A stretch of 64,000 bases of DNA, taken from positions 91,846-155,845 of the forward strand of contig JAQBVF010000003.1 in the NCBI GenBank assembly GCA_027623675.1, in the 5' to 3' direction. The position numbers were made by a program, and so were the translations under genes. Below the pieces are notes generated by a model that worked only from the letters and a program-made list of their open reading frames with translations, was not told where the DNA came from and made no database searches. The first letter of the stretch is position 1. Each line of letters starts with the position of its first letter. Shown here piece by piece: positions 45,601 to 54,250 of the stretch. This DNA comes from Chloroflexota bacterium (lineage in GTDB: Bacteria; Chloroflexota; Dehalococcoidia; Lucifugimonadales; UBA3495).

Positions 45601-46445
45601 AGGCGGCGGTAGAACTCGATCTGTGCGGCCGCTATGCGCCGGGCGGCGTCGGCGTCGAATTCCCTGTCCTCGTGTAGCCATTCCCATAGGGAGCGCAGGT
45701 CATCTTCTTTGAAGTTCAGGTCCTTGGGCTCCAGGACAGGGTCCTTGTCCAAGGTGGTCTGCATGTACCGGTGGCTCTCGTCGGTGTCGATATCACTGAA
45801 CAGGGCCATCATTTCGTCGTCTTCGGCCACGCCTAGGGCGCGCAGGAAGGTGGTCGCGGAGACCTTGCGTTTTCGGTCAACCTTGACGGAGATGATGTCC
45901 TTGGAGCTGGTCTCGAACTCCAGCCAGGCGCCCCGTGAGGGAATCAGCTTGGCCGAGCAGAGGTTGCGGTTGCTGATGGCGTTGCGCTCTGAGACGAAGT
46001 AGATGCCGGGTGAGCGCACCAACTGGCTGACCACGACGCGCTCGGCGCCGTTGATGATGAAGGTACCGTTGGAGGTCATCATGGGGATGTCGCCCATGAA
46101 GATCTCTTGTTCCTTGATCTCGCCGGTCTCTTTCATGACCAGACGGGTCTTCACGTAGAGGGGTTGAGAGAAGGTTATCTCCCGCTCTTTGGTCTCCTGC
46201 GGAGAATATTTGGGGTCGCGGAAGTAGTGCTCCTGGAAATGCAATTCGTACTTATTGCCGGTGTAATCGGCAATGGGTGAGATCTCTTTGTATACTTCAA
46301 CCAACCCATCAGATTTTAGCCAGTCCCAAGACTGTATCTGACTTTGAATCAGATTGGGAACGTCGAGTATCTGAGGAATCTTCGCATAGGTTTTGACATC
46401 GGGCAGTTGCATAGATTGCCCTTTGAGAACGGGTGACAAAGCCAT
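42669..46445 (-). CDS. rpoB: RNA polymerase beta subunit
   Basis: [31 protein letters not shown] and [13 protein letters not shown]. Confidence 0.99.
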
Positions 46446-46611
46446 TTACCCTCTCCTTACCGGAAGTGGACGTGATTGGCCATGGGGCCTAGTGCCAGAG
46501 GCGCGAGTGCCCGGGGCGGGCAAGTATGTAGGAAAAACGAGTGTTGGGGATGGTTGCCTATACGTGTGGTGAGCGAATACGTAGTTTGAAGCATACACTT
46601 ATCAAACCTCA

Positions 46612-46639
46612 ATTATACTAGTAATCACACGGATGTCAA
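46612..46639 (-). promoter_or_regulatory. Consensus sigma70 promoter for rpoBC
   Basis: Minus strand TTGACA-16 bp-TATAAT, about 165 bp upstream of the rpoB start. Confidence 0.8.
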
Positions 46640-46979
46640 TATTGCGGCTTGGTATTTTCGGTGGTTTCCACCCGATTTGTCAAGGGCCGGATTTTCTTCG
46701 TCTCCCATGCAACTTCTCTATGCCTGGCGGGAGACCTTGTTCGGCGACTTTTTTGGTTGTCCGGAGACCGCTTTGGACCAGATTGGTCCTCTATGATTTA
46801 CCGTACGAATGGGCTATTATCACTGCAAGAAATTTCGTGGCGCCCCAAGATTACTTGATCGCGGGTTCTTAAATTTGGTTGCCCGCGCCCGGTGGCTGTT
46901 AACCCAAGTTGCGGAATAAGGCCAAGCATGGCCGCCGGGCGCGGGGCCCGGCCAAACTTTAGTACTCGTTCAGGACTCG

Positions 46980-48329
46980 ATGGCAAATTTCAGCCTCAAG
47001 CCCTCAAACATGGTGCTCGCCGGACGTCCCGTGCATTACGCATGGGTGATCGTGGCGGTTGCCGCCTGTATGAGGCTGTTCAGTTCGTCGTTCCGTTCAT
47101 CCTCCAGCATCCTGATACCCCGGCTGGTCGATTCCTTCGGCTGGAGCTACGGCGCCGTGGGGCTAGGTTTCTCCATCCAGTGGATCGTCTCTGGGCTGTT
47201 CGGCCCACCCGCTGGCATGTTGGGCGACCGTTACGGAGTTCGCTGGACCATGGCTCTGGGAGCGGCCTTGTTCATCGTGGGCATGGTTCTCACCGGCACG
47301 ATGAACCACCTCTGGCAGTTCTACCTGTACTTCGGTGTGATTCTCAGCGCCGCCATGGGCATCTTCCAGGTGCCGCTCACCGCGGCCGTCACCCTCTGGT
47401 TCCGCAAGCGCTTGGGCACGGGAATGGGGCTGTTGCAGTCGTCTCAGGGCATCGGGCCGTTGGTCGCGGTGCCGGTTATGCTGATCATCATTGAACTGTT
47501 CGGCGGCGATATAGGCGGCCTCCGGGCTGCCTTTATCATCCCGGGCATCGTCGGCGGGACCATCTTGTTGTTGCTGGTGCGCCTGTTCTACAACGAGCCG
47601 GCCGCCATCGGGGTCCGGGCCTTGGGAGCGCCGGAAGACGAGCCCATCAAGGCGGTCCAGACCCGTGATGTCGCCAAGGTCCGGACCAAGGTATTCCTCA
47701 AACAGGCCCAGCGGACCAGCGCTTTTTGGAACCTGATCGGCATCCATTTCTGGGGCTGCGCCGGCCACGCCATCATCCTGGTTTACCTGGTGGCCATGGC
47801 TGAGGACGAAGGCGTCTCCAAGGGCTTGGCTGCGGGGGCATTCGTGACCATGTCGGTCACCAGCACCATCACCCGGTTCGCCGTGCCGGTGATCGCCGAC
47901 CGGATGGGCAGCAAGCCCGCCATGGCCGGCTGCTTCTTCCTACAGGTTGCTCCCATATTCCTGCTGTTCTTCGCCCAAGAGGCGTGGCAGTTCTACCTCT
48001 TCGCCGTGTTGTTCGGCATCGGGTTCGGCGGCGAGATGAGCGCCTTCCCCATCATCAACCGCCAGTACTACGGCAGCGGCCCCATCGGCACGACCTACGG
48101 CTACCAGATGATGGGCGCCGGCGTGGGCATGGCCACCGGAGCCCTCATCGGCGGTCAGCTGCGGGACTGGACCGGCAATTTCGACGCCACCATGGCGCTT
48201 TCACTGGTCCTCAGTTTCATCGGGGTGATCAGCATAATGGTGCTTCCCACCACCAAGAAAGAGTTGCTGCCCAACTGGGAAGCCGAGTTGACCCCGGCAA
48301 ACGCCGCGTCCACCGCCGCCGACGACTAG
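46980..48329 (+). CDS. MFS transporter (OFA/MCT-like)
   Basis: YAWVIVA, GMLGDRYGVRW motif A, WFRKRLG and IADRMG; ~12 hydrophobic segments. Confidence 0.92.
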   Translation: MANFSLKPSNMVLAGRPVHYAWVIVAVAACMRLFSSSFRSSSSILIPRLVDSFGWSYGAVGLGFSIQWIVSGLFGPPAGMLGDRYGVRWTMALGAALFIVGMVLTGTMNHLWQFYLYFGVILSAAMGIFQVPLTAAVTLWFRKRLGTGMGLLQSSQGIGPLVAVPVMLIIIELFGGDIGGLRAAFIIPGIVGGTILLLLVRLFYNEPAAIGVRALGAPEDEPIKAVQTRDVAKVRTKVFLKQAQRTSAFWNLIGIHFWGCAGHAIILVYLVAMAEDEGVSKGLAAGAFVTMSVTSTITRFAVPVIADRMGSKPAMAGCFFLQVAPIFLLFFAQEAWQFYLFAVLFGIGFGGEMSAFPIINRQYYGSGPIGTTYGYQMMGAGVGMATGALIGGQLRDWTGNFDATMALSLVLSFIGVISIMVLPTTKKELLPNWEAELTPANAASTAADD

Positions 48330-48484
48330 CCAGGTCTCGTCGCCCCGGTCCGGTTTTTCCCAGCCTCACCGCCCTTCTGGTGCCACGCCTCCGGCTATGT
48401 GCTAAACTCCGTTATCGAATCTGGCGACGCCCCGAATCTCCGGGGATTGCCCTGAATTTCTCTGAGTTTTAGGAGGGCGCTACG

Positions 48485-49909
48485 ATGCTGGACCTAATCA
48501 TTAAAGGCGGACAAGTTGTAACTCCCATGGGCGTGGGCGAATGGGACGTTGCGGTACAGGGTGAAAAGATCGTGGCGGTGGCTGCTCCCGGCGCCCTGAC
48601 CGGCGAGGCCGGCCGCGTCATCGACGCCACCGGCATGATGGTGGTGCCGGGCGGCATCGAGCCTCACGCCCATATCTCAGCCCCCATCATGGGCCACGGC
48701 GACCTGTTGACCGCGCCGCCTGAGGAAGTTAGCCGGGCCGCATTGTTCGGCGGGACCACTACGCTGCTGGACTTCGCCATCCAATACCCCGGCATCGACA
48801 TCCCCCAGGCGATCCAAGAGCGGACGGGGGTCTGGCAAGGAAATTCCTACGCCGACTACGCCCATCACCTGATGCTCCTGGGCGACATCCCGCCGGAGAT
48901 ACTGGGGTCGCTGCACGAGGCGGTGGAAGACGGTTTCCCGACCATCAAGATATTCACCACCAACATCCGGCCTCCCGCCACCACCGGTGAGCCGCGCATG
49001 GTGGGCACCGGCCACCTGCACGACCTGATGGAGGAGGTCCAGCGGATGAACGCCATGCTGCTGGTCCACTCTGAGGACGACGATATGGTGCAGCACATGT
49101 ACCGGAAACTGGCCCGCGAAGAGCGGACCGAGTGGTACAACATGCACCACGTCCACAGCGCAGAGTCGGAGGACGTCTCCTTCCGCCGGGTGCTCCGGGT
49201 GGCTGAATGGACTGGCGCTCCGGTCTACTTCGTGCACGTTAGCGCGACTCAAGGACTGCAGAATATCCTGGAGGCGCGTTCCAACGGACGGCCGGTCTAC
49301 GGCGAGACCCTGCACAACTACTGCTGCTTCAGCGCCGACAACTACAAAGAAGAGAACGGGATGAAGTACCACACCTACCCGTCTTTGAAGTCGGAAGCCG
49401 ACCGCCAGTCCCTGTGGGACGGCATCGTGCATAACGGCCTGAGCACCATGGCCACCGACGAGTATTGCACATCCTGGGAGACCAAGATCTCTGGCCGGAC
49501 CGTCTCCGACGTTACCGGCGGCCATAACGGCGCCGAAGCCCGCATGGGCGTCACCTACAGCGAGGGCGTTTCCCGGCGGGGCATGTCCCTGCAGCGGTTC
49601 GTGGACGTTACCTCGGCCAACGCCGCCAAGATCATGGGCCTCTATCCCCGGAAGGGCGTGTTGGCCCCCGGCAGCGACGCAGATATCACCCTGATCGACA
49701 CGAACTTCAAACGCAAGCTGACCATTGACGACTTCCACATCTCCGACTACAGCATCTGGGAAGGCTTCGAGGCCGACGGCTGGCCCGTGACCACCATCCT
49801 TCGAGGCAACGTGGTGGTGGACAACCGGGAGTTCAAGGCCGCCGCCGGCAGCGGCCAGTTCATCCCCCGGAAGGTCGACACAGCGGTAACCAACCGCCCG
49901 GTGGCCTAG
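48485..49909 (+). CDS. Cyclic amidohydrolase (dihydropyrimidinase/hydantoinase family)
   Basis: PGGIEPHAH, GGTTT, TIKIF (carbamylated Lys), VHSED, FVHVS, ATD and GSDAD. Confidence 0.88.
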   Translation: MLDLIIKGGQVVTPMGVGEWDVAVQGEKIVAVAAPGALTGEAGRVIDATGMMVVPGGIEPHAHISAPIMGHGDLLTAPPEEVSRAALFGGTTTLLDFAIQYPGIDIPQAIQERTGVWQGNSYADYAHHLMLLGDIPPEILGSLHEAVEDGFPTIKIFTTNIRPPATTGEPRMVGTGHLHDLMEEVQRMNAMLLVHSEDDDMVQHMYRKLAREERTEWYNMHHVHSAESEDVSFRRVLRVAEWTGAPVYFVHVSATQGLQNILEARSNGRPVYGETLHNYCCFSADNYKEENGMKYHTYPSLKSEADRQSLWDGIVHNGLSTMATDEYCTSWETKISGRTVSDVTGGHNGAEARMGVTYSEGVSRRGMSLQRFVDVTSANAAKIMGLYPRKGVLAPGSDADITLIDTNFKRKLTIDDFHISDYSIWEGFEADGWPVTTILRGNVVVDNREFKAAAGSGQFIPRKVDTAVTNRPVA

Positions 49910-50016
49910 CAAAATAGGCGCGTTTCCTTAAGCCCGTGTGGGCGAGACAACACGTCCACACGGAACCCAGGATTGGAAACCCAGGACCGGGAGTCCAAGA
50001 CAGATAGGAGCAAGAT

Positions 50017-50550
50017 ATGGCACGGATCAAGTTGGTGCCGACAGATGAGTTGACGCCGGGCCTGCGCGAGATTGCGAAAGGCGCGGAGGCCCACAAGCTT
50101 AATCCGGCCATCTTTCAGGCGGCCGGCAACCTGCCTGATGCCTACGAAGCGTTCTGGGCGTTCTACGCTCCCCTCAAACTTGAAGGGCTGTTGGAGCAGC
50201 GGCTGAAAGAACTGGTGCGGCTCAAGATCGCCGACCTGAACGACTGCGCCACTTGAAGGCTGGGCAGGGCTGTACCGGCGGTGCAGCAAGGAATGACCGA
50301 AGAGATGGTGGCCAGTCTGGTTGATTTTGAGAATGCCGCCATCACCGACCGGGAGAAGATGGCGGTCCGGTTCGCCCAACTGATGGCGACCGACCACCAC
50401 AGCATGGATGATGTTTTCTTCGAACAGCTGCGCGCCGAGTTCACCGACCCCGAGATCTTCGAGCTGGGCATGATCACCGGCCAGTTCATCGGCTACGGCA
50501 GGCTGATATCCATACTTGACCTGGAGAACCACGGCCAACCGCCAACCTAG
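50017..50550 (+). CDS. AhpD/carboxymuconolactone decarboxylase family protein, probable selenoprotein (TGA 50254-50256 = Sec, C-A-T-U)
   Basis: ORFs 50017-50256 and 50281-50550 are in one frame, separated only by TGA. Read-through gives 177 aa ...LKELVRLKIADLNDCATURLGR...TDREKMAVRFA...FTDPEIFELG, one complete AhpD-like protein. Confidence 0.85.
50257..50287 (+). promoter_or_regulatory. Putative bacterial SECIS element
   Basis: 12 nt after UGA, 8-bp stem GCUGUACC/GGUGCAGC with a G-starting GGC apical loop 20 nt from the UGA. Confidence 0.65.
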
Positions 50551-50558
50551 GAGGTTCG

Positions 50559-51020
50559 ATGATGACCACGTCCAACAGGGAGACTGAGGCCATGCGGGAG
50601 CGGCTCCGCAGTTTGATCCCGGCCGGCGGGAAAGACGGCCCGACCCAGGGCGTGAACCACATCGCGGTGTTTGCCAAGGACCTGGAGGCGACGGCCAAGT
50701 TCTACAGTGAAATCATGGACATGCCGGTGATCCGCATCGCGCCCAACCGGGACGCGGACGAGTCCACCCACATGAACGTGGCCATCGGGAACGGAATGTC
50801 GCTGGCATTCTTCGACTTCCCGCACGTGCCCCGGCTCAGGCGGCGCGCCCCCGAGGGTGTGGGTAACGTGATGCACATCGCCCTCCCCATTGCCAAGGAA
50901 GTCTTCTTGGACCTGAAAGGCCGGATGGACCGCAACAAGGTCAAATACCAGGAGGTTGGCGGGTCGCTGTACGTGAAAGACCCCAACGGCCTGGCCATCG
51001 AGTTGATGCCCTACGATTAG
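50559..51020 (+). CDS. VOC (glyoxalase/bleomycin resistance) family protein
   Basis: GVNHIAV..KDLEAT.KFY, HIAL and SLYVKDPNGLAIEL. Confidence 0.9.
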   Translation: MMTTSNRETEAMRERLRSLIPAGGKDGPTQGVNHIAVFAKDLEATAKFYSEIMDMPVIRIAPNRDADESTHMNVAIGNGMSLAFFDFPHVPRLRRRAPEGVGNVMHIALPIAKEVFLDLKGRMDRNKVKYQEVGGSLYVKDPNGLAIELMPYD

Positions 51021-51057
51021 CGTTCGGCTTTCCGGAGCCTTGTACTCAAGACCAAAG

Positions 51058-51384
51058 AGGCGTCCCAGAGTTTCATCATGGGCCGCACCCTACCGGGCAG
51101 ATGCCGTCATTTATGCGAAAGTCGAAATGACGGTCGGGCAGATCAACCACACTCGCTACCGGTCATTCTTGTCCTTCCGCGGAAGAATCAGAATCTCTTT
51201 GTTTGATTTCAAAGTTGCTATCGTACGGTGAGACCCGGGGGGTGGTCTCCCATCAGCAAGGAGATTCCTCTCTTCGCTCGGAATGACAAAGGCGGCCGGG
51301 GGATGACAAAGGCGGCGGCATCCACCCGGCAACCTCCGGGATGACAAAGGCGGCGGCATTCACCCACCAAATTCAGGGACGCCT
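51058..51384 (+). repeat. Composite REP/MITE-like element, copy 4
   Basis: Same internal sequence (TACCGGGCAGATGCCGTCATT..., GAGATTCCTCTCTTCGCTCGGAATGAC, tandem GATGACAAAGGCGGC) but terminal IR AGGCGTCCC...GGGACGCCT. Confidence 0.88.
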
Positions 51385-51419
51385 ATTTGTGTGGACATAA
51401 CCTTTGGTGATCGCGGTCT

Positions 51420-52613
51420 CTAGCGCGGCAGAATGCCCCTGCGGTCCAGGATCCGGGCGAACTCGGCGATACCGTCTCGAATGGTTTCGACGGTTGGGTG
51501 CCCGAAGCAGAGCCGCACGCAGTTGGAGCCTTCGCCGGTCGGCGAGAACTGGGATCCGTTGTAGTAGCTGACCCCTTCGTCGAATATCTCTTCTTGCACC
51601 GCGGCCAGGTCGGTACCCTCGGGAAATCTTACCCAGACGTAGAGTCCGCCCTGGGGCGCGGTCCATTCCACGGAACTTCCGAAGTTCTCTCCCAAGGCGG
51701 CAACCATGGCGTCCCGCTTGGCGGCCAGCGCCCGGTTCTGCTCTTCGATGTGGTGGTTGAGACCGCCTTTCATGTATTCGGCGATGGTTAGGGCGGTGAA
51801 CTGGCTCACCGCGCCGCCCGACTTGAAGCTCCAGGCCCGCCCGATGACCTCCTTGGGGGCCACCAGGTAGCCCATGCGCATGCCGGGGGCGATGATCTTG
51901 GAGAACGAGCCAACGTAGACCACCCGGCCGGTGTCATCCAGGGAGTGGAACGATGTCACGTCCTCTCCCTCGAACCGCAGGTCCGCGTAGCAGTCGTCTT
52001 CGAACACGGGTATGCCGTGTTTGCCGGTAACATCCAGCACCTGCTCGCGGCGTTCCAGGCCCATGGTCCAGCCCAGCGGGTTCTGGAAGGCGGGGATGGT
52101 GTAGAGGTACTTAACCTTCTTGCCCTTGGCCAACTGCTCCGTGATAACCGCGTCCAGGTCTTCGGGGATGATGCCGCCGTCGTCGCATCTGACGCCGACT
52201 ACATCGGCCCCGTAACGCCTCATCTGGTTCAGGGTCCCCAGGTAGACGAACTCCTCAACGAGAACAACGTCGCCGGGGTCGGTTAGGGCCTGAATCACGA
52301 TGCCGATGGCCTCGCCCGAGCCGGAGGTCAGCACCAGGTCGTCGGCGGTCACCTTCATGTTGCGGTCTCGGCTCAGCTTCTCGGCCACCAGCCTCCTCAG
52401 CTCAGGGTCTCCGGACGGGGACGAATAGTACGCCAGGTCCCAGCCTTCGCGGTCAAGCCCACTCTTAACCGCCTCGACCAGCCCGTCCAGGGGCAGCAGG
52501 TCCGGGTCCGGGTAGGCTACGGCAAAGTCATACTTGGAGTGCCGGACGTTGCCCGGAGGGGCGTCTCGCGACCCCGCCGAGAATAGGCTTTCGTAGTTGA
52601 ATCGTTCGGCCAT
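51420..52613 (-). CDS. PLP-dependent aminotransferase (class I, ARO8/MocR-domain-like)
   Basis: YTIPAFQNPLG, FEDDCY and GSFSKIIAPGMRMG. Confidence 0.92.
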   Translation of the reverse strand: MAERFNYESLFSAGSRDAPPGNVRHSKYDFAVAYPDPDLLPLDGLVEAVKSGLDREGWDLAYYSSPSGDPELRRLVAEKLSRDRNMKVTADDLVLTSGSGEAIGIVIQALTDPGDVVLVEEFVYLGTLNQMRRYGADVVGVRCDDGGIIPEDLDAVITEQLAKGKKVKYLYTIPAFQNPLGWTMGLERREQVLDVTGKHGIPVFEDDCYADLRFEGEDVTSFHSLDDTGRVVYVGSFSKIIAPGMRMGYLVAPKEVIGRAWSFKSGGAVSQFTALTIAEYMKGGLNHHIEEQNRALAAKRDAMVAALGENFGSSVEWTAPQGGLYVWVRFPEGTDLAAVQEEIFDEGVSYYNGSQFSPTGEGSNCVRLCFGHPTVETIRDGIAEFARILDRRGILPR

Positions 52614-52739
52614 CGTTCGCTCCCTGTTGGTGGGTTGGATATCCTAAAGCATTGGTTTGGGCAACCGGGTTCTTGTCCTCGCGCCGAACCGTGGGCTGGG
52701 CGCCAGAATGATATCTGGCCATCGCGTTAGGCGAGTGCG

Positions 52740-53075
52740 TCAGTACAGCCCCTCGTCGCTGAAGAAGGGTTTGTCGGCGTCGGGGCTTTCTTTGCCCAGG
52801 ATGCGGTCGGTGTGGAGCAGGCCGGCACGGTTCCAGAGAACCAAAATGGCCCGGTCCATCAGGTTTTGGGGGAGGGATATCCGCCGTCCGTGTTTGAGTG
52901 CGAGCCATTCGGCGTAGCCAACGGAAAAATATTGCTCCATGAACGGGGTTGGTTCGGCCTCCGCGGAAGCGAATTCTAGGATGATGTCCGGAACTTGAGC
53001 GCAGGTGATATCCGGTTGTTCCTCGGCCATCTTTAGGAAGCGCGCTTGGGCCTCCAGGTCCATCGGTTCGGGCAT
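52740..53075 (-). CDS. Hypothetical protein
   Basis: 111-aa ORF with protein-like composition, co-oriented with its neighbours; family not recognised. Confidence 0.7.
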   Translation of the reverse strand: MPEPMDLEAQARFLKMAEEQPDITCAQVPDIILEFASAEAEPTPFMEQYFSVGYAEWLALKHGRRISLPQNLMDRAILVLWNRAGLLHTDRILGKESPDADKPFFSDEGLY

Positions 53076-53185
53076 AATTCACGCCAGCCATAGGTCTAAA
53101 AATAATCTTGGCGGAGACTTTTACGCCTCCGCCAAGGATCGTTGCCGGTTGATGCCGTCAGCGGGGTTTGCCGCTGGGCGGGGAA

Positions 53186-54250
53186 TCAGAGATTGAGCTG
53201 GGGCACCAGGTAGCCAGACTGCTTCTTGTAGATCTGCAGGCGGCTGCGTTGGGTGTCCGCGACCATCAGGCGGTTATTGGCTTTGTCCCATTCCACCGCG
53301 GTCGGCTGGGCGAAGGTCCACTCAGGCTCGGTGCTGCGGACCTCCCGGCGGCGCTTGGCGTAGTCGGCGTTGGCGTCGACGGTCATCTGGGCCCACTGGG
53401 AGAGCTGTTGAGCGTCACCCACCAGCGAGGTCAGGAAACGGCCATCGGCGGTGAAGATGTGCACCCGGCCCCGGTCCCAAGCGTTCTTGGTCCAGTCGCA
53501 GATGTAGATGTCCCCGTCCGGGTCAACGGCCACATCGGTCGGGCTGTTCAGTTCGCCGCGCTTGTTGCCGGGCCGTCCAATCTGGGCTTCGAACTTGCCG
53601 TCGGCCGAGAATTTCTGTACCCGGTGGTTGCCAAAGTCGGCGACGTAGACCTTGCCGTCCTGGTCGATGGTGATGCCCCAAGGGGAATCGAACTGCCCTT
53701 CGCTCACGCCCTTGTTGCCAAAGGAGCTGATGAAGGAGCCGTCGCTGTTGAACATCCGGACCTGGTGGCTCCGGCTGTCACTCACGTAGACGGTGCCATC
53801 AGAGGCGATGGCGATGCCGGCCGCGCCGTTGGGCTCGGCTTCTCCCGGTTGGACGGTGTTGAAGGCGCGCAGCAACTGGCCGTCTTGGTCGAATACCGAC
53901 ACGCGGTTCAGCCATTCGTCGGTGACGAACAATTCACCCTGATCGTTGCAAGCGATACCGGCGGGCCAGATCAATTGGCCGTCGCCGTTACCGTATCTGC
54001 TGAATTCGCCCAGGAACTTCTCATCGCCCCATTCGGGACCGATGGTGAGCTTGGATATCCGCTGACCTACTCCGGTGCGGTTCCAACCAACGTTGCTGAT
54101 GCTCTCACTGCCCCGGTTGGTTACGAACGTTGTTCCGTCGGGGGTGATGGTCATGGAATTGGGCCAGTTGAAGCCCATCCCAGACTGGGAGCCGCGGCCA
54201 ACGTTGTGGCTGTAGTCGTAGGTCCTGCCTGCCACTGTTTCCGTAAGCAT
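53186..54250 (-). CDS. NHL-repeat beta-propeller protein (paralog of 17228-18310)
   Basis: GQLIWPAGIA, VTDEWLNRV and GQFDSPWGI..DQDG.VYVAD..NHRVQKF repeats. Confidence 0.92.
   Translation of the reverse strand: MLTETVAGRTYDYSHNVGRGSQSGMGFNWPNSMTITPDGTTFVTNRGSESISNVGWNRTGVGQRISKLTIGPEWGDEKFLGEFSRYGNGDGQLIWPAGIACNDQGELFVTDEWLNRVSVFDQDGQLLRAFNTVQPGEAEPNGAAGIAIASDGTVYVSDSRSHQVRMFNSDGSFISSFGNKGVSEGQFDSPWGITIDQDGKVYVADFGNHRVQKFSADGKFEAQIGRPGNKRGELNSPTDVAVDPDGDIYICDWTKNAWDRGRVHIFTADGRFLTSLVGDAQQLSQWAQMTVDANADYAKRRREVRSTEPEWTFAQPTAVEWDKANNRLMVADTQRSRLQIYKKQSGYLVPQLNL

Follow-up and report, generated by a model that had tools for sequence, protein, structure and literature searches.

An in-frame TGA predicts selenocysteine in an AhpD-fold protein with an arginine-type active site from a Dehalococcoidia genome

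The window analysed here, a stretch of 64,000 nucleotides from a Chloroflexota (Dehalococcoidia) genome, contains a gene of 177 codons that is interrupted by an in-frame TGA at codon 80. From established bacterial selenocysteine (Sec) decoding, we infer that this TGA is almost certainly read as Sec. The product has a predicted AhpD fold in which Sec80 would occupy the position of the second cysteine of the C-x-x-C motif. Judged by its residues, it is not a canonical AhpD: the catalytic histidine is replaced by an arginine (Arg84) and a further arginine (Arg68) is invariant, features that place it in a large, mostly Cys-containing Arg-type subfamily. By analogy with studied AhpD proteins, the gene, with hairpin-aided Sec insertion at codon 80, probably encodes a selenol/thiol reductase of an oxidized substrate, acting for example in general peroxide or disulfide reduction. 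The coordinates of all features are collected in Table 1.

The ATG start codon is preceded by a Shine-Dalgarno-like AGGAG, and the frame remains open past its only in-frame TGA (TGC GCC ACT TGA, C77-A-T-U80) until a TAG at 50548–50550. Gene calling with table 11 splits it into ORFs of 79 and 89 aa, and the codons linking them (81–88) are open. The initial annotation had described two ORFs parted only by the TGA, had located this TGA at the second Cys of a CxxC motif and had anticipated that standard pipelines would fragment the gene; we find a single 177-codon frame, and the other two statements also hold. An exhaustive search returned 1277 relatives of the read-through protein. Among the best 150 of these, 124 homologous domains span the site, and 108 of the 124 have Cys at column 80. 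Close orthologues occur in the protein collections searched only as half-proteins: none of 43 matches covers more than 51% of the query, and the cluster of the 79-aa N-terminal half has 167 members. A search with this half against proteins of at least 140 aa gave no full-length form among 227 candidates, which is weak evidence. The read-through reading mends a systematic annotation error, in which a gene of an abundant aquatic bacterial group is counted as two hypothetical proteins. No RNA data set is listed as containing the stretch. Contigs of two sequencing runs carry it with no other letters, and may themselves be the source of the DNA.

Table 1 Positions of the predicted selenoprotein gene, its elements and neighbours, and of other loci mentioned in the text
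Feature	Position	Strand	Evidence
Predicted selenoprotein gene, single, 177 aa, CMD/AhpD fold, Sec (inferred) at residue 80	50017..50550	+	
Shine-Dalgarno-like AGGAG, 6 nt before start	50006..50010	+	sequence
Glu65, equivalent of AhpD Glu118 / PA0269 Glu36	50209..50211	+	118/124 homologous domains; PA0269 alignment
Arg68, invariant in Arg-type homologues, absent from His-type	50218..50220	+	104/104 vs 0/23
Cys77, opens the C-x-x-U motif; by analogy the resolving thiol	50245..50247	+	52/52 loci; 115/124 homologues
In-frame TGA, Sec80 (inferred), Cys133-equivalent position	50254..50256	+	TGA in 52/52 loci; Cys in 108/124 homologues
Arg84, where AhpD has its catalytic His	50266..50268	+	52/52 loci; homologues 109/124 Arg, 2/124 His
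SECIS-like hairpin, 8-bp stem, GGC loop	50269..50287	+	folding, conservation; criteria of PMC13188914 (partial text)
Upstream neighbour, dihydropyrimidinase/hydantoinase-like amidohydrolase, syntenic	48485..49909	+	upstream in 47/47 Dehalococcoidia loci
Downstream neighbour, VOC/glyoxalase-family gene	50559..51020	+	downstream in 20/47 loci
Sigma-70 consensus upstream of rpoB	46612..46639	-	TTGACA-16-TATAAT
tRNA-Sec	G000:C23:60570-60662, L004:1501-1593	+	
Orthologue interrupted by insertion	L096:7330-8924		
Orthologue remnant, 19 codons	L244:2464-2520		
Loci with a His-type AhpD gene near the orthologue (Rokubacteria/Methylomirabilota)	L094:2088-2618, L097:8013-8543		
MFS transporter, in-frame TGA at residue 244	G000:C13:88901-90193, L133/L153	-	
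NMT1-like substrate-binding-fold protein, TGA at residue 73	G000:C21:2830-3747, L137/L173	+	
Second AhpD-like selenoprotein candidate, canonical His type	G000:C43 near 20224, L141:411-890	+	
Second MFS gene, one late in-frame TGA	G000:C47 near 14831, L135:281-1525	-	

The TGA is conserved in two overlapping sets of orthologues. The first comprises 61 genomes, in which all 14 full-length matches, at identities of at least 74%, contain one TGA. The second was drawn from 57 loci of a genome collection, 51 of which are orthologues that include the N-terminal half; together with the window they give 52 rows, 47 of them distinct around codon 80. Two loci were left out of the counts, L097 with an N-terminal half replaced by unrelated sequence and L099 with poor sequence. 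Besides the window, the 52 loci include 48 labelled Chloroflexota/Dehalococcoidia, two Rokuibacteriota and one labelled Proteobacteria, and the nearest are labelled Dehalococcoidia or SAR202 cluster. At 63–90% identity, codon 80 is TGA in 52/52 loci and never TAA or TAG. Arg84, situated in the linker between the two annotated halves, is Arg in every one of the 52 loci and is encoded by all six Arg codons, which indicates that the linker is translated and under protein-level selection. Codon differences are mostly synonymous throughout, with non-synonymous shares of 0.24, 0.31 and 0.30 across both halves and the linker.

A SECIS-like hairpin, GCTGTACC-GGC-GGTGCAGC, follows the TGA after a 12-nt spacer, with 20 nt between the TGA and the loop. 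In the accessible part of PMC13188914, bacterial SECIS elements are modelled with a loop of 3–9 nt with a G in the first two loop positions (G[G/U]), a stem of 4–16 bp, a spacing of 16–37 nt and a minimum free energy at or below -7.5. Applied by hand, these limits all accommodate the hairpin, with its 3-nt GGC loop, 8 bp, 20-nt spacing and folding energy of -12.6 kcal/mol. The folding energy by itself is modest, both for a 47-nt segment (z = -0.52; 58 of 200 shuffles equally good) and for the 25-nt hairpin alone (z = -2.88; 2 of 200 shuffles equally good). By a rule of our own (at least 6 contiguous pairs, a G in the first two loop positions and a loop start at +16 to +24), 25 of the genome's 30 hand-picked selenoprotein candidates qualify, as against 6 of 166 true TGA stops and 35 of 510 Cys codons; eight pairs are reached by 3/166 and 3/510, respectively. 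The loop is GGC here, as against GU in the loop of 20 of the 30 candidates.

The hairpin is conserved together with the TGA. Its eight pairs are all present in 50 of the 52 loci, its GGC loop in 51, and across the 14 orthologues pairing holds in 111 of 112 cells. When 56 windows of five four-fold synonymous sites are ranked by variability in these 14 orthologues, which are kin and so not independent, the five sites within the hairpin vary least. Covariation is not demonstrated: no pair changed on both sides in the 14 orthologues, and an equally high score is reached by 467 of 500 shuffles. The one both-sided stem change is found only in the two Rokubacteria loci and is probably a single event. 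The 8-bp GGC hairpin described in the initial annotation, 12 nt downstream of the TGA, was recovered, as was the conservation of TGA and hairpin in relatives, one of the points named in that annotation. An Rfam scan of 46400–53200 gave no match at E ≤ 0.1.

The genome (3.07 Mb, 91% complete) carries a full selenocysteine machinery. We found selA (453 bits), selB as a 622-codon frame ending in the C-terminal SelB RNA-binding wing domain (73 bits), selC as a tRNA-Sec with a TCA (UCA) anticodon (70.4 bits against a cut-off of 47), and selD, which itself holds one in-frame TGA. The presence of all four genes supports the earlier proposal that the organism incorporates selenocysteine. The acceptor stem of the tRNA-Sec is one position shorter than in the Rfam model, which suggests an acceptor plus T stem of 12 bp (7/5), like that of epsilon-proteobacteria in the accessible text of PMC4607533. 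TGA terminates 200 of 947 long genes and is therefore not reassigned genome-wide. Across related genomes, selA is present in 56 of 61, and in 12 of the 13 relatives that have an orthologue, the exception (G018) being 78% complete; one of the two Rokubacteria genomes carrying the TGA form also has it. Distant homologues were compared in 43 of 51 phylum genomes, the eight weakest being left out: selA occurs in 32/32 genomes whose best distant homologue has a TGA and in 9/11 of those without one, and the only two of the 43 that lack selA carry Cys forms.

The AlphaFold2 model, built from a 110-sequence alignment with Cys standing for Sec, has a pLDDT of 95.5 and displays the all-helical AhpD fold with a two-helix catalytic hairpin. 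The closest matches by fold, at TM about 0.8 and Z 16–18, are AhpD-like peroxidase-related proteins, headed by 6k40 (Z 18.2, rmsd 2.6 Å over 172 residues) and followed by 2oyo (18.1), 2prr (17.6), Bmp8 (16.4), PA0269 (16.0) and M. tuberculosis (Mtb) AhpD (9.5); gamma-CMD proteins match less well (9.9–11.2). In profile searches the protein scores 25.7 bits against a gathering cut-off of 23 for Pfam CMD (PF02627), a marginal match that falls to 22.1 in a six-frame search, and the Rokubacteria orthologue scores 44.9 bits. Among six AhpD-type NCBIfam models (TIGR01926, NF053654, TIGR04169, NF041238, NF041047 and NF041537) it reaches no cut-off: three give 47.8/81.8 (TIGR01926), 57.3/310 (NF053654) and 20.2/120 bits, and the other three have no match at E ≤ 0.001.

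The AhpD relay consists of Glu118, Cys130, Cys133 and His137, and its histidine (His137/His55) is invariant and essential in AhpD-like proteins, according to the accessible text of PMC3141380. The Glu 12 residues before the first Cys and the C-x-x-C spacing are retained in our protein (E65, C77, U80), with Sec as the second Cys. In place of the His four residues after the second Cys stands Arg84. The initial assignment to the AhpD/CMD family agrees with the predicted fold and the CxxU motif, but the protein is not a canonical AhpD. Compared with Mtb AhpD, Pseudomonas aeruginosa PA0269 (2o4d, 2ijc) and Deinococcus radiodurans AhpD (6k40), with which it shares the fold (Z 15.8–18.2 for PA0269 and 6k40, 9.5 for Mtb AhpD), the Glu and the CxxC spacing at 20–30% identity, the window protein has Sec instead of the second Cys, Thr where these have His or Tyr at Cys+2, Arg at the place of the essential His, and the additional invariant Arg68.

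We typed 140 aligned homologues by the residue at the position of Arg84 and obtained 104 Arg-type, 23 His-type and 13 with other residues. The Arg-type proteins have Arg68 in 104/104, His127 in 73/104 and Gly161 in 77/104 cases, the His-type proteins Arg68 in 0/23 and Asn161 in 23/23; since the Arg set was picked by similarity to the query and the His set consists mostly of related Chloroflexota genes, the counts stand for two clades rather than for independent events. Each of the five solved-structure alignments shown is of the His type. A quick tree places the query in an all-Sec clade (SH-aLRT 99) with Dehalococcoidia, Rokubacteria and one genome labelled Proteobacteria. This clade stands among Cys-containing Arg-type proteins, and the Chloroflexota Sec proteins of the His type fall elsewhere; the tree, which leaves 37 of its 77 inner branches open, fixes neither the closest Cys sister of the clade nor the number of Sec origins. 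A literature search, with most subscription journals and supplements outside its scope, found no study of Arg-type AhpD-like enzymes, and a search for SAR202 plus selenocysteine gave nothing on the topic by title.

On the mechanism that we propose, SelB with Sec-tRNA(UCA) would bind the GGC-loop hairpin 20 nt downstream of the TGA and insert Sec at codon 80. Sec80, at the position of Cys133 of Mtb AhpD, would then attack a peroxide O–O bond or a disulfide. By the same analogy Cys77, as the resolving thiol, would turn the adduct into a selenenyl-sulfide, which would be reduced again by a thiol system of the cell. A selenolate ionises without the need for a base. From their conservation, Arg84 and Arg68 may keep the nucleophile in its anionic form and provide a binding site for an anionic substrate or leaving group. 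Because Cys homologues also have Arg, the pair predates Sec, and it more likely stabilizes the anion or binds an anionic substrate. Sec80 is read as the attacking nucleophile because Cys133 of Mtb AhpD is the exposed, attacking residue that links to AhpC; in Burkholderia thailandensis AhpD the ranking is the opposite, the first Cys being the more important one (both from the accessible text of PMC6626918). The proton relay of AhpD runs through Glu, water and His, and the His is absent here. As this residue is invariant in AhpD-like proteins, peroxidase activity cannot be assumed.

The genomic neighbourhood is stable. In the 47 Dehalococcoidia loci with enough flank for synteny counts, the amidohydrolase gene always lies upstream, within about 210 nt in 44 of them, and the VOC gene, whose ribosome-binding site overlaps the TAG stop of the selenoprotein gene, follows in 20. 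Obligate coupling to the amidohydrolase is ruled out, with the amidohydrolase present in 36/36 family genomes as against 13/36 for the selenoprotein gene. One genome has the selenoprotein gene elsewhere (L054 and L238). We fetched 20 loci that lack it: none has an intact CMD gene as a substitute, a remnant of 19 codons survives in one, and the VOC gene follows directly in seven. The interruption of one orthologue (L096) by an insertion of ~1.6 kb, apparently with inverted ends, and the reduction of another (L244) to this remnant point to dispensability. We conclude that the gene is an accessory redox function in a stable neighbourhood and not a required step of an amidohydrolase pathway; its surroundings look syntenic rather than like an obligatory pathway. 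A promoter and terminator scan gave nothing above chance inside the gene cluster. Elsewhere in the window, a perfect sigma-70 consensus (TTGACA-16-TATAAT) lies upstream of rpoB. The amidohydrolase keeps the hydantoinase metal ligands, has D-E-Y-C in place of the D-H-C of solved hydantoinases and scores below the NCBIfam dihydropyrimidinase cut-off, so its substrate may differ. Two loci from Rokubacteria/Methylomirabilota (L094 and L097) have a His-type AhpD gene close to the orthologue, in a TGA form in one genome and a Cys form in the other, and in both a different VOC gene lies 6 nt downstream of the orthologue.

It is conceivable, though unlikely, that the protein is a substrate-specific catabolic reductase, in which the selenolate removes a halogen or reduces a specific anionic organic molecule, and not a general antioxidant. 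The debrominase Bmp8, which has an AhpD fold, removes halogen with a thiolate. Bmp8 (6ohi, 6ohj) has the fold and size of the window protein and is among its close fold matches (Z 16.4, rmsd 2.6–2.7 Å; profile E 2.6e-20), and its catalytic Cys is implied by the title of a C82A-product complex. The active site appears remodelled as a set, with Arg68, His127 and Gly161 in the Arg type as against Asn161 and no Arg68 in the His type, and the gene lies between small-molecule enzymes in a genome with 18 CMD-domain matches. However, Bmp8, at 16–19% identity, is tied in Z with several peroxidase-related proteins and scores no better than these, and a shared fold shows no function. The distribution of the amidohydrolase described above leaves no conserved pathway context, the loci without the gene hold no intact substitute, and the Rokubacteria orthologues have other neighbours.

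A function in which the Cys/Sec pair binds a metal or metalloid, or carries out a non-redox nucleophilic step, with no selenenyl-sulfide cycle, is improbable. The loss of the His proton relay would be compatible with it, as would the conserved D126-H127 pair, which offers further ligands, and CMD-fold proteins include non-redox decarboxylases (PMC3141380, accessible text). Yet the CxxC/U spacing and Glu65 are exactly those of redox AhpD proteins, the gamma-CMD proteins, described in the same text as having no CxxC motif, match the model less well, and two invariant arginines would be expected to disfavour cation binding. Least credible of all is that the TGA is a real stop, be it through a split gene, a pseudogene or a mistake in sequencing, or that it codes for a different residue, for example Trp or Cys: the databases keep the halves as separate proteins, an in-frame GTG at 50281 could restart translation and the gene is dispensable, but a TGA that never becomes TAA or TAG at such divergence, an Arg84 retained through six synonymous codons between the two supposed genes, the loss of half of the active-site motif upon a cut at residue 80, the complete Sec machinery, the use of TGA as a genuine stop elsewhere in the genome and a homologous residue that is Cys, not Trp, all speak against it.

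As an AhpD/CMD-like CxxU selenoprotein, the predicted protein falls into a known group. In 2005, PMC1088965 described CxxU selenoproteins of the AhpD-like (27 sequences) and CMD-domain (4) kinds, and the GOS data added 299 AhpD-like 1 sequences plus 70 (PMC2398784), which puts AhpD-like selenoproteins among the commonest in ocean metagenomes. The accessible part of a 2026 inventory (PMC13188914) lists several AhpD/CMD-type CxxU families, all of predicted redox function and none experimentally verified. BSepDB reports two Dehalococcoidia with 49 and 46 selenoprotein genes (PMC13326102); one of the two is the genome behind locus L073, which carries an orthologue, and BSepDB may therefore already include the clade. 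Catalogues thus list AhpD/CMD-like CxxU selenoproteins from 2005 onwards and selenoprotein-rich Dehalococcoidia from 2026. With the published AhpD-like (TIGR01926/COG2128) and CMD-like (PF02627) CxxU families (PMC1088965, PMC2398784, PMC13188914), the window protein shares the CMD/AhpD fold, C-x-x-U, an in-ORF SECIS hairpin and Cys homologues; it differs in its score below the TIGR01926 cut-off, in Arg instead of His at Sec+4 and in forming its own Sec clade. Its best NCBIfam match is the YciW-related (seleno)protein model NF053654 (E 1.6e-15), which is of the same length class (179 positions) and likewise a (seleno)protein, but the bit score given above excludes membership.

The recoding itself is ordinary, and the Arg-type active site is the only open point of interest. 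A more speculative proposal, which we regard as quite unlikely, is that the Arg-type branch (E-x2-R-x8-C-x2-C/U-x3-R ... DH ... G-x-G-R) would form an enzyme class with a mechanism of its own, for which the matches include no curated model or solved structure, and that its SAR202/Rokubacteria clade independently adopted Sec for substrate-specific reduction (dehalogenation, oxidised organosulfur) in the breakdown of recalcitrant organic matter. The functions of AhpD-like selenoproteins are still predicted ones (PMC13188914, accessible part), and the Sec clade, with its small, well-folded protein and its natural Cys counterparts, provides a test case.

The approximately 30 selenoprotein candidates of the genome were hand-picked from 113 filtered read-through sites. 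Mostly from their motifs, we take them to include eight UGSC-type, two PrdB-like and two DsbA proteins, together with Prx/Trx/Grx-like, ArsC-like, SelW-like, OsmC, rhodanese, deiodinase-like, DUF3179, BtuF-like and SelD proteins. One further AhpD-like candidate is of the canonical His type (C-R-Y-U-x3-H); it exceeds the TIGR01926 cut-off (113.7 vs 81.8 bits) and lies 2.6 kb from a thioredoxin-like U-x-x-C gene. In an NMT1-like substrate-binding-fold protein with no NCBIfam match, the TGA is present in 23 inspected loci, paralogues have Cys and a GU-loop hairpin is invariant; none of 13 fetched paralogues has a TAA or TAG at the Sec column, such stops lying at the protein end in two and otherwise outside the re-alignments. 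The residue-244 TGA of an MFS transporter is kept in 20/20 close matches (its own gene included, the others at 62–83% identity) with a conserved downstream hairpin, eight distant paralogues have no stop, and the protein is absent from the 119-family table in the accessible part of PMC13188914. The late TGA of a second MFS gene, which has no SECIS-like hairpin, is possibly a nonsense mutation.
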